From assembly GCA_964613815.1 (NCBI GenBank), contig CAZTKG010000005.1, positions 22,026-86,025 of the forward strand: a stretch of DNA of 64,000 nucleotides, given 5' to 3'. The position numbers and the translations under genes were made by a program. Below, one piece after another: positions 54,975 to 57,900 of this stretch. This DNA comes from an uncultured Gammaproteobacteria bacterium. GTDB taxonomy: Bacteria; Patescibacteriota; Patescibacteriia; UBA9934. The notes beneath the pieces are model-generated. The model saw nothing but the letters and a program-made list of their open reading frames with translations, was not told where the DNA came from and did no database searches. How positions within the stretch are numbered: position 1 is the stretch's first letter; the number at the start of each line of letters is the position of its first letter.

Positions 54975-57900
54975 CTGGACAATTAGTACACCTCAGCTTA
55001 ACGCGTTGCCGCGCTTACACTTAGTGCCTATCAACCTCATGGTCTCTGAGGAGTCTCTAGGGGTCTCCACACAAATCACTTCCGGCTCAGAATTGATTAT
55101 TTTTCCTCCCAATCCTTTTATGACTCCTCAACGATGACTGTACATCGCTTCGTCGTCATTCAATGATTGGTAGAAAAAATCCTACAATTCTGACTCGAAC
55201 TGATCTCTGTGGAGACCCCAACGAAAATTAATCTTAGGATCGGCTTCGCACTTAGATGCTTTCAGCGCTTATCCGAACCGAACGTGGCTACCCAGCGATG
55301 CCCTTGGCAGGACAACTGGTACACTAGAGGTTCGTCCATCCCGGTCCTCTCGTACTAGGGACAGGTTCCTTCAATTTTCAACGCGCGTAGTGGATAGGAG
55401 ACCGACAATTCTGTTACTTTGCGGACCACGTCTATAATCTGATGTGCTCTGTGGTGCCTTGATCATTTCTGCCAAGGTCTGTATGTCGCCATACAGTTCG
55501 GACTATATCTTACATCTATCTGATAGATGCTTCGGCGTATAGTCTCTGAGGATTCTAGAAATCGTATGATCCCTAGTCTTTCCTGCTGATTATCTGCACT
55601 CAACACATTTTTACGTATCGGTAATCTTCGTTTTACCACGTAGTGTGAGATTCTTTTCCCTTGATCTCCAAATCAAGAGGCTCCAGACTTTCCAGCATTT
55701 AGCCGAATTTAACGACAGCACGGTCGTACTTCAATAAAGAAGTAATTTTGAACGAAAAGTTTGTGATGGATTAGTTCAAAGTGTCGTTATCTTTACTGTC
55801 TCACGACGTTCTGAACCCAGCTCGCGTACCGCTTTAATAGGCGAACAGCCTAACCCTTGGGAGCTTCTTCACCCCCAGGATGCGATGAGCCGACATCGAG
55901 GTGCCGAACCACGCCGTCGCTGTGGACGCTTGGGCGTGACTAGCCTGTTATCCCCGGAGTAGCTTTTATCCGTTGAGCTTCCGCCGTCCTATATCGGATC
56001 GGTCGGATCACTAGCTCCTGCTTTCGCAACTGCGCGACATGCCAGTCTTGCAGTAAAGCTCCCTTTTGCGCTTGCACGTCCAGCCCGATTTCCATCCGGG
56101 CTAAGGGAACCTTTGTGAACGCCTCCGTTACTTTTTGGGAGGCGACCGCCCCAGTCAAACTACCTACCAGCTACTGTTCCAGAAATTAGATTCATAATCT
56201 CCGGTTAGGATTCACACAACACAAGGGTGGTATCTCACGGGCGCCCGAAGGCTCCCACCTATACTGAACATGTGAAACATGAACCCAATAGCAAGCTATA
56301 GTAAAGCTTCACGGGGTCTTTTCGTCCGACTACGCGTAGAGAGCATCTTCACTCCCGTCGCAATTTCGCCGAGTACATTGTTGGGACAGTTGACGAGTCG
56401 TTATGCCATTCGTGCAGGTCGGAACTCACCCGACAAGGAATTTCGCTACCTTAGGACCGTTATAGTTACGGCCGGCGTTCATCCGCGCTTCGGTCGACAG
56501 CTTCTCCCACCGAAGTGAGATAACCCTCTTCCTTAACGTTCGGACACTGGCCAGGCATCAGCCCCTATACATCATCTTGCGATTTAGCAGGGACCTGTGT
56601 TTTTGATAAACAGTCGCTCGTCATCTTTCGCTGCGGGTCCCTTTCTCAACGAAAGGAACCAGGCCTTATCCCGAAGTTACGGCCTCTGTTTTGCCGAGTT
56701 CCCTAACAATGTTTCTCTCGTACGTCTTAGTGCTTTTACACCCGTCTACCTGTTTCGGATTTGGTACGGGCGCGCTATATTTAACCCCTAGAGGCTTTTC
56801 TTGATTCCCTTTCCCTTCCTCTCCCTGGCGTAAACCAGGTCGCGATGGCCCAGGGCCTTGTGACTGGCGGATTTACCTACCAATCAACCCCAAGCACCCA
56901 ACGTCATAGCCGTAGGACGCAGGAAGCTCAAAGAAATGTCCCCCCATTGGGGCGGCACCGAAGTGCCGATATAACGCGGGGCAGGAATATTAACCTGCTG
57001 TGCATCGACTACGCCTTTCGGCCTCGCCTTAGCTCCCGCCTAACCCACAGACGATTTTCGTTGCTGTGGAAACCTTAGACTTTCGACGGACAGGGTTCTC
57101 ACCTGTCTTTTTGCTACTCATTCCAGCATTCTCTCTTCCCAACGCTCCACCACAGGTCGCCCTGCAGCTTCATCGCAGATGGAAATGCTCCCCTACCAGA
57201 CTAGATAAAAAGATATCTAGAATTCTCAGCTTCGGTACATTGTTTAGCCCCGGTACATTTTCGGCGCAGAAAGGCTTGACCAGTGAGCTGTTACGCTTTC
57301 TTTAAAGGATGGCTGCTTCTAAGCCAACCTCCTGGTTGTATGAGCCTCTCAACTACCTTTTACACTTAACAATGATTTTGGGACCTTAGCTGGAGATCTG
57401 GGCTGTTTCCCTTTCGACCAATGGAGCTTCGCCCCCATGGTCTGACTGCCGGGAACACGTACTAGTATTCGGAGTTTGGCTAGGTAGGCTACCGCATAAC
57501 GGCGCCAAACCCAATCAGTGCTCTACCCCTAGCACGCTATTAACCGACGCTATGCCTAAACATATCTCGGGGAGAACCAGATATAACCGAGCTCGATTGG
57601 AATTTCTCCGCTAACCACACCTCATCCCAACGTTTTGAACGACGTATGGGTTCGGGCCTCCACCCGGCAGTTAGCCGGGCTTCACCCTGGACATGGTTAG
57701 ATCGCTCGGTTTCGGGTCTTGCGCCCGCGACAATCATTTCGCCCGTTAAGGCTCGCTTTCACTATGGCTTCGCCCCGAAGGGCTTAACCTGCCACGAACG
57801 CAAACTCGCTGGATCATTCTTCAATAGGAACGCCATCACCCAATAAATTGGGCTCTGACTCCTTGTAGGTATATGGTTTCAGATTCTATTTCACTCCCCT

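Follow-up and report, generated by a model that had tools for sequence, protein, structure and literature searches.

How can a working ribosome be built from a 23S rRNA gene in which several hundred extra nucleotides stand next to the peptidyl-transferase centre? This question was raised by a locus on contig CAZTKG010000005.1 (assembly GCA_964613815.1), from which a stretch of 64,000 nucleotides, here called the window, was analysed. Its 23S rRNA gene carried a 389-nt insert that an earlier sequence-only reading had taken for a group I intron without an open reading frame (ORF). Our analysis led to a closely similar answer: the insert was very probably a functional, spliced, ORF-less group I intron at L2604, that is, after position 2604 of the 23S rRNA in Escherichia coli numbering. 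The host gene and its neighbour were as follows.

54965..58508, minus strand: 23S rRNA gene, the intron host (Rfam LSU_rRNA_bacteria, 2475.5 bits, full model 1-2925)
54766..54872, minus strand: 5S rRNA gene, downstream of the 23S gene (Rfam)

Since the 23S gene lay on the minus strand, the RNA-sense strings quoted in the earlier reading were reverse complements of the window. The 5' exon, with the end ...CGUGAGACAGU (in longer form ...AACGUCGUGAGACAGU), terminated at 55795. The insert RNA began at 55794 with AAAGAUAACG (longer, AAAGAUAACGACAC...) and closed at 55406 with ...AACAGAAUUG (longer, ...GUAACAGAAUUG), its last nucleotide being a G, and the 3' exon restarted at 55405 with UCGGUCUCCUAUCC. 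After joining, the exon junction would read GAGACAGU-UCGGUCUC. The insert was exactly 389 nt long (55406..55794), and its GC content was 40.4% vs 51.6% in the exons. The coordinates, the length, the final G and the AT-richness that had been proposed were all found in the sequence as described, and the placement of the site near position 2610, in the region of helices 93-95, had to be corrected. Namely, when the E. coli numbering was taken from the RefSeq gene NZ_AP018488.1 with anchors at A2451 (GAUA-A-C) and at the sarcin-ricin loop (2654), the last U of the 5' exon was U2604, and the insertion fell between U2604 and U2605. This point was in helix 93 (2588-2606 in the Rfam structure line), two nucleotides past the bulged A2602 of the peptidyl-transferase centre, and the intron split the 3' strand of the helix. 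Because the insert was located in helix 93 by A2602 and the rest of the 23S sequence was intact, it would have to be removed for the ribosome to work, judging from the established structure of the ribosome. A numbering through a Shigella locus (L035) was also tried and dropped: that assembly was error-rich, with many small deletions, and its apparent match was itself a missing T.

The insert was not peculiar to one assembly. The 4-kb region that included both the insert and a second inserted hairpin (described below) was present with 100% and 99.98% identity in two independent ENA assemblies, and a JGI contig covered the last 1.5 kb of the region, intron and hairpin included, at 100% identity. 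Two Logan contigs contained only the last 572 nt, with the hairpin region inside and the intron outside. Samples from the source environments were those of ERZ23498963, ERZ23498945, JGI 3300008625, SRR8062317 and SRR9166044. Since the same sequence was recovered in independent assemblies, neither the insert nor the hairpin was an assembly artefact.

The Rfam group I model (Intron_gpI, RF00028), which the sequence-only reading had named as the check to be made, matched 55479..55782 on the minus strand over its whole length (model positions 1-253 of 253) with 72.4 bits, the gathering score being 50 (E = 2e-16). The 73 nucleotides at the 3' end that were outside the model formed the peripheral helices P9.1 and P9.2 and a tail. 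All core pairs from P3 to P9, including the P3/P7 pseudoknot, could be formed in the window copy, where the helices were mapped by hand. The elements are given below in the 5'-to-3' order of the RNA, with pairing and compensation figures taken from an alignment of 44 sequences that is described later.

55795..55800, minus strand: 5' exon end GACAGU, which serves as the 5' strand of P1 and has its splice-site U opposite G (U.G pair); complementary to GCUGUC at 55714..55719, the pairing being unchanged in 44 of 44 sequences
55726..55794, minus strand: extended loop of P1 (L1), about 69 nt, common to a subfamily
55714..55725, minus strand: internal guide sequence GACCGUGCUGUC, 12 nt, with direct complementarity of 6 + 5 bp to the exons
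55702..55707 / 55531..55536, minus strand: P3, UUCGGC/GCCGAA; 5 of 6 pairs compensatory, 100% paired
55692..55697 / 55584..55589, minus strand: P4, UGCUGG/UCAGCA; 100% paired, nearly invariant
55592..55688, minus strand: extended P5 domain; 3 of 4 pairs of P5 and 7 of 7 pairs of P5a compensatory
55550..55583, minus strand: P6 (GG/CC) and P6a hairpin with a 4-nt loop, the place of the LAGLIDADG ORF in relatives
55538..55549, minus strand: R element UCAGAGACUAUA; P7 97.7% paired, two pairs compensatory
55513..55529, minus strand: P8 hairpin CAUCUAU-CAG-AUAGAUG; 5 of 5 pairs compensatory
55500..55511, minus strand: S element AAGAUAUAGUCC, which is J8/7 plus the 3' strand of P7
55479..55496, minus strand: P9 hairpin CUGUAUG-GCGA-CAUACAG, GNRA tetraloop; 100% paired, with compensatory changes at 5 of 7 pairs
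55407..55477, minus strand: 3' peripheral domain, beyond the Rfam match, conserved in the family
55406, minus strand: terminal G (omega G); every family member had ...UG right before UCGGUC
55400..55404, minus strand: 3' exon CGGUC, the P10 partner of the guide segment GACCG

The guide sequence was complementary to both exons: its GCUGUC paired with the 5' exon (P1, 6 bp) and its GACCG, located directly before GCUGUC, with CGGUC of the 3' exon (P10, 5 bp). The R-like and S elements that had been noticed earlier were both present and in the correct order in the RNA. The R element held the 5' strand of P7 (G, a bulged A, and GACUAU), and with it the G of the G-C pair that binds guanosine; the partner strand of P7 in the window was AUAGUC and C. 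The P5 domain was composed of P5 itself (UCUG/CAGA), an extra hairpin with a UUGGAG loop, P5a (CUCACAC/GUGUUGAG, with a 1-nt bulge), P5b and the A-rich joiner GUAAAAAUG. In the 3' domain, P9.1 (CCUUG...CAAGG, with the loop CAGAAAUGA) was followed by P9.2 (ACCAC...GUGGU around AGAGCAC...AUAGA) and the conserved tail GUAACAGAAUU, and the window junction read ...AAUUG|UCGGUC. The absence of P7.1/P7.2, as far as the sequence indicated, argued against subgroup IA.

The pairings were supported by homologous introns at the same site. An exon-junction scan was made over one genome per GTDB species with a query consisting of the exon end followed by a non-T (AACGTCGTGAGACAGTV), and it returned at least 120 loci, which we designate by L and a three-digit number. 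Among the matches listed, 102 had an insert at exactly 2604 that ended in G before UCGGUC, and nearly all of these belonged to one family. The family consensus consisted of the guide ..ACCGNGCUGUC followed by UAUAAA, P3 UUCGGCU followed by P4 UGCUGG, the core elements R UCAGAGACUAUACG and S AAGAUAUAGUCCGA, and a 3' part with P9 GCUGCAUGGCGACAUGCAG, then P9.1 CCAGGCAGAAAUGACCUGG and the tail GUAACAAAAUUG. The core of the window intron agreed with this consensus at all invariant positions. Five relatives were sampled with Rfam; four ORF-less L2604 introns scored 64-86 bits, and the fifth, an ORF-bearing copy (L104), gave no match at the 2604 site. The introns listed that were closest to that of the window were L087 (Uhrbacteria, 74.6% identity over nucleotides 65-389), L005, L015 and L064, from genomes with a CPR label or CPR-type 23S features (CPR, candidate phyla radiation), and all five had in common the extra P5 hairpin (UGGAG loop) and the AGAGCAC...AUAGA part of P9.2. 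No match to the window intron was found in phage genomes. Related CPR 23S genes had extra group I introns elsewhere (1074..1357 in L087, 3107..3333 in L104), while the 23S gene of the window had just the one at 2604.

For covariation, the window intron and 43 relatives were aligned with MAFFT, with the ORFs masked as NNNN, and a hand-made structure string was scored on these 44 sequences. The P1-P10 model had 92.5% of its cells paired, compared to 80.6% with shuffled partners and 33-39% with partners slid by 1-3 columns. Its covariation score was 0.371, compared to 0.140 for shuffled and 0.05-0.10 for slid partners, and none of 500 shuffles was as high. The shuffle control can be beaten by kinship alone; the slid-partner control preserves kinship and was far lower. 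Changes on both sides of a pair were seen at 5/6 pairs of P3, 3/4 of P5, 7/7 of P5a, 2/7 of P7, 5/5 of P8 and 5/7 of P9. The G-C pair of the guanosine pocket and the U.G pair of P1 were kept in 44/44 sequences, the invariance of P1 being due to the invariant exon. P9.1 and P10 were paired in only 50% and 67% of the alignment, figures that understated their pairing because length differences shifted the register of the MAFFT alignment; by eye, both helices were kept. Moreover, inspection of the alignment indicated that the extra hairpin of the P5 domain covaried among CPR-type members and that the P9.2 stem occurred as CCAC/GUGG, CCGC/GCGG, CCUC/GAGG and CCAU/AUGG among relatives. Thus, the proposed group I identity was supported by the Rfam match, by all the hallmarks at the sequence level, and by compensatory changes among same-site homologues.

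The lack of a homing endonuclease gene, which had also been claimed from the sequence alone, was confirmed in two ways. No ORF above 58 aa overlapped the insert on either strand, and no endonuclease remnant was detected when the LAGLIDADG proteins of two relatives were searched against the 64-kb window by tblastn (E > 0.9). In the listed introns, the lengths were bimodal: 41 were below 470 nt and 59 were about 700-900 nt. The long relatives had an insertion of about 450 nt in the loop of P6 (L6) that encoded a protein of about 150-160 aa matching Pfam PF00961 (LAGLIDADG_1) as a single domain (E = 5e-23 and 5e-19). The P6 segment was 24 nt in the window vs 440-484 nt in ORF-bearing relatives, and in a few listed relatives it was 95-190 nt and resembled decayed ORFs. 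The window copy belongs to a site-specific family, the spread of which would depend on a single-domain LAGLIDADG homing endonuclease with its gene in the P6 loop. It is an ORF-less member that either lost the gene cleanly or descended from an ORF-less lineage, and it would now be inherited passively.

The most unusual part of the window intron was the loop of P1. Between the splice site and the guide, L1 was about 69 nt long in the window vs 5-15 nt in most family members. It contained ACGAC (55783..55787), a hairpin UUUGAAC/GUUCAAA (55747..55780), the conserved motif UUUUCGUU (55751..55758, minus strand), and a hairpin ACUUC/GAAGU (55728..55743). When metagenomes were scanned with the 5' end of the extension, eight more contigs were returned, two of them duplicates. 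The L1-extension subfamily comprised the window, L064/L129, L128, L132, L133/L135, L131, L130/L104/L134 and L007; in L025, L081 and L072 the extension was shorter. Common to the subfamily were the 5' end AAAGAUARCGAC and the motif UUUUCGUY(Y)AWAA. A hairpin located just before CGACCGUGCUGUC varied in sequence with its pairing kept, as seen by eye (ACUUC/GAAGU, CUCGAUC/GAUCGAG, AUCCAA/UUGGAU, GUUCAAUC/GAUUGAAC and UUCAGU/ACUGAA). RNAalifold on ten L1 sequences found a consensus of only P1 and one extra pair. The search for a partner of UUUUCGUY gave none that recurred convincingly; with G.U pairs allowed, this pyrimidine-rich motif fits many purine runs.

Within the subfamily, RCGAC was complementary to GUCGU of the exon, which is the 5' strand of helix 93, and in the window and L064 also to the 3' part of the guide. 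An "anti-helix-93" role of RCGAC would be conceivable from this complementarity, and covariation cannot probe it because both partners were invariant. An 8-bp helix UAACGACA/UGUCGUUA was considered as a family feature and rejected, being retained only in the window and in L064 (as UAGCGAC there) and lost in L128, L132, L133 and L007. Since it was not conserved across the subfamily, we regarded it as competing with P1 in a lineage-specific way and not as a designed switch. Through its complementarity to exon and guide, RCGAC could release the splice-site strand from helix 93 or keep the guide masked until the rRNA has folded, and in this sense be a switch.

If the insert is spliced in the way of other group I introns, the following events would be expected. 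In the precursor rRNA, the guide GACCGUGCUGUC would pair with the exon segment GACAGU as P1, its splice-site U facing a G (U.G wobble), and the core P3-P9 would fold with P7 as the guanosine pocket. An external guanosine would attack after U2604. The guide would then align CGGUC of the 3' exon via P10, and the terminal G would enter the pocket, upon which the exons would be joined and helix 93 of the peptidyl-transferase centre restored.

Several points weighed against this reading. Family membership, boundaries, pairings, covariation among homologues and the absence of an ORF were direct observations; splicing, and its being autocatalytic, we infer from them. L1 was unusually long and its conserved motif had no convincing partner in the pairing search. 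The minimum free energy fold of the isolated intron preferred the 8-bp competing helix, which covered four of the six guide nucleotides of P1. The last two points, together with the lack of a maturase or endonuclease ORF in the window intron, would also favour the view that the insert is a group I intron by descent that no longer splices by itself, either because it needs a protein of the host or in trans or because it is defective and sits in a non-functional 23S copy. We considered this quite unlikely, since every core pair was intact in the window copy, the invariant family positions were all matched, the remaining 23S sequence scored as a complete gene, and the same sequence was maintained in several samples. 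Moreover, CPR genomes usually have one 23S copy, so that a dead copy would be lethal (PMC11270868).

The other two explanations had still less in their favour. An expansion segment kept in the mature 23S rRNA appeared very improbable. Nothing specific spoke for it, apart from the inserts that the same gene had in domain I and at helix 98, and the group I score and a guide for both exons spoke otherwise. Besides, such a segment would interrupt the stem of helix 93 by A2602, where the established knowledge of ribosomes includes no expansion segment, and homologues at the same site carry homing endonucleases. Least probable of all, with hardly any weight left, was an assembly chimera in which a foreign intron had been joined into the 23S gene. 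rRNA regions are prone to mis-assembly and the two Logan contigs broke within the 23S gene, but the agreement of the two ENA assemblies and the JGI contig across the intron spoke against a chimera, as did a guide sequence that fitted the exons of its own gene. A functional group I intron that is spliced out thus remained by far the best explanation of the insert.

To which organism did the interrupted gene belong? In a comparison of the final 1.2 kb of exon 1, the best seven of the retrieved 23S genes (L064, L104, L098, L105, L001, L097 and L087) were 80-82% identical to the window; six of them were labelled Uhrbacteria, Buchananbacteria or Patescibacteria, and L064 was labelled Gammaproteobacteria and had a 23S gene with CPR traits. 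Actinomycetota and others had 72-78% identity to the same stretch. The distance between the motifs flanking helix 98 was 51-56 nt in CPR-like genes, 64-75 nt in others and 68 nt in the E. coli-type Shigella locus (L035); in the window it was 215 nt, or 55 nt without the hairpin. CPR 23S rRNAs normally lack helix 98, and the hairpin-free spacing of the window fitted this published loss (PMC9297842). On these sequence traits, the host was probably a CPR/Parcubacteria-type bacterium. The window also encoded riboflavin synthase, lumazine synthase, OMP decarboxylase and a phosphoribosyltransferase; genes for riboflavin and pyrimidine synthesis represent a richer biosynthesis than is usual for CPR. 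A number of metagenome-assembled genomes (MAGs) from TPA_asm records were titled "uncultured Gammaproteobacteria" and had a CPR-type 23S gene (L005, L007, L021, L028, L039, L055, L064, L066, L072, L081 and L095). Helix 98 was missing from them except in L095 (69 nt, a non-CPR spacing), their introns were of the CPR-type subfamily, and their top identities were to CPR genes. The Gammaproteobacteria labels of these MAGs look unreliable.

The sequence-only reading had also pointed to a second extra hairpin of about 150 nt near the 3' end of the 23S gene. This hairpin was real, but it replaced helix 98 and was not intron-like.

55060..55219, minus strand: near-perfect hairpin of 160 nt, GGGGUCUCCACAGAGAUCAG...UGUGUGGAGACCCC, in place of helix 98 (Rfam alignment and fold)

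In the Rfam alignment, 152 extra nucleotides were in the loop of the helix that matches E. coli 2791-2805 (helix 98). When folded, the hairpin gave one stem of about 70 bp (-88 kcal/mol, z = -11.8), and its GC content was 43.8%. It matched no Rfam family above noise, was not found again in the window or the 120 retrieved loci, and occurred in one of the 96 23S genes compared, being absent from the other 95. The hairpin is not an intron. In form it was similar to the RNase III-processed intervening sequences (IVSs) of 23S rRNA, as it was a long AU-rich extended stem that replaced the tip of a surface helix and occurred sporadically. IVSs are known from helices 9, 25 and 45, and helix 98 is not among these sites. 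Expansion segment 39 (ES39) of eukaryotes and Asgard archaea grows from helix 98 as well, whereas the hairpin of the window was located in a lineage normally without this helix. By analogy, it may be an RNase III-type IVS at a new site or a retained ES39-like expansion segment, and it implies that a large insertion can reappear at the place where a lineage has given up a surface helix. We gave a low probability to two further readings, namely that the L1 extension is a functional add-on rather than junk, and that the helix-98 hairpin marks an unrecorded IVS or expansion site. Two more small insertions relative to the Rfam bacterial model were seen in domain I of the 23S gene, at about 58174..58228 (about 55 nt) and about 58123..58142 (about 20 nt), both on the minus strand.

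Other RNA genes and neighbours of the 23S gene were also recorded. An Rfam scan of the 64 kb found no 16S rRNA gene within the window, and the region upstream of the 23S-5S pair was free of 16S for 5.5 kb (58509..64000); the rRNA genes appear to be unlinked. The neighbouring genes encoded lumazine and riboflavin synthases, a SPOUT methyltransferase and a protein of the AstE/AspA family. The further RNA genes were these.

3884..3959, plus strand: tRNA-Ile with anticodon UAU
20509..20921, minus strand: RNase P RNA class A, 164 bits, 413 nt compared to a model of 367 positions
50318..50388 and 50477..50548, plus strand: two tRNA-like genes (Rfam, 49 and 57 bits) with shortened anticodon arms
50554..50648, plus strand: 95-nt tRNA, called Leu(CAA) by ARAGORN

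A tRNA-Ile(UAU) is rare in bacteria and is usually found where lysidine-based decoding of AUA (TilS) is absent. Several insertions were present in the RNase P RNA, with about 19, 53 and 34 nt against 0, 6 and 7 in the model, and 34 model positions were missing in one region. In the two tRNA-like genes, ARAGORN reported two-base "anticodons" in the loops GUGAAA and UGCACC, which resembled Phe-GAA and Cys-GCA minus one nucleotide. In the tRNA called Leu(CAA), Rfam showed a perfect 5-bp anticodon stem, CUCGU/ACGAG, around 30 nt, which may represent a short insertion or intron of the anticodon loop, as opposed to a long variable arm.

How does the window intron compare to systems already known? 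With the Tetrahymena-type (IC1) introns and the rRNA introns of RF00028, it shared the helices P1-P10, the U.G splice site, the terminal G, the extended P5 domain with its A-rich joiner, and P9.1 and P9.2. The R and S core sequences of Tetrahymena (CAGACUAAA and AAGAUAUAGUC) were nearly identical to those of the window. In contrast to the Tetrahymena type, the window copy was found in a bacterium, had no P2/P2.1 and had its extra RNA within the P1 loop. Among other bacterial 23S group I introns, those of Coxiella burnetii (L1917 and L1951) and of Thermotoga and Simkania (L1931) are also in domain IV/V, and some of them carry LAGLIDADG genes and others do not. Their insertion sites differ from that of the window intron, and therefore their guide sequences and endonuclease targets differ as well.

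The closest known systems were the introns of CPR 23S genes. In 348 such genes, 433 group I introns have been found with the same Rfam model, 222 of them ORF-less (Tsurumaki 2024, J Bacteriol; PMC11270868). Their sites were clustered around the peptidyl-transferase centre, and position 2604, one of the sites 23IS12-14, was a frequent one, dominated by LAGLIDADG_1 but with ORF-less forms too (PMC11270868). ORF-bearing and ORF-less introns of the same site were very alike outside the ORF, as a homing cycle of gain, decay and loss predicts, and group I introns at 23IS9-11, 13 and 14 were previously unreported in known bacteria (PMC11270868).

The sequence-only reading had called such introns a hallmark of CPR. 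The CPR-like 23S gene of the host agreed with this, but the same family was present at the same site in MAGs labelled as Actinomycetota, Omnitrophota, Armatimonadota and others. About half of the listed carriers, which were a non-random sample and are given as labelled, were Actinomycetota (Acidimicrobiia, Solirubrobacterales and Gaiellaceae), together with about ten Omnitrophota, five Armatimonadota, and one or a few each of Dormibacterota, Planctomycetota, Acidobacteria and Myxococcota. They included both MAGs and complete genomes and, among the matches listed, most often had a LAGLIDADG gene in the P6 loop. Among these matches, the family was at least as frequent outside CPR labels as within them. 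Thus, rRNA introns at 2604 were not a peculiarity of CPR, since the family was present in many genomes with other phylum labels. In the literature searched, the coverage of which was incomplete, there were no reports of 2604 introns outside CPR and nothing further on "L2604".

By its occurrence so near the peptidyl-transferase centre, an intron of this kind disrupts rRNA-based annotation and the sites of primers and probes. The window intron is a further example of a published kind of intron at a published site, and this one ORF-less example added to a site-specific family matters little alone. It had the same position and the same Rfam class as the CPR introns at 2604 (PMC11270868), in a host with a CPR-like 23S gene, and was set apart from them by its clean 24-nt P6 and by an L1 of about 69 nt, an extension absent from most of the family.

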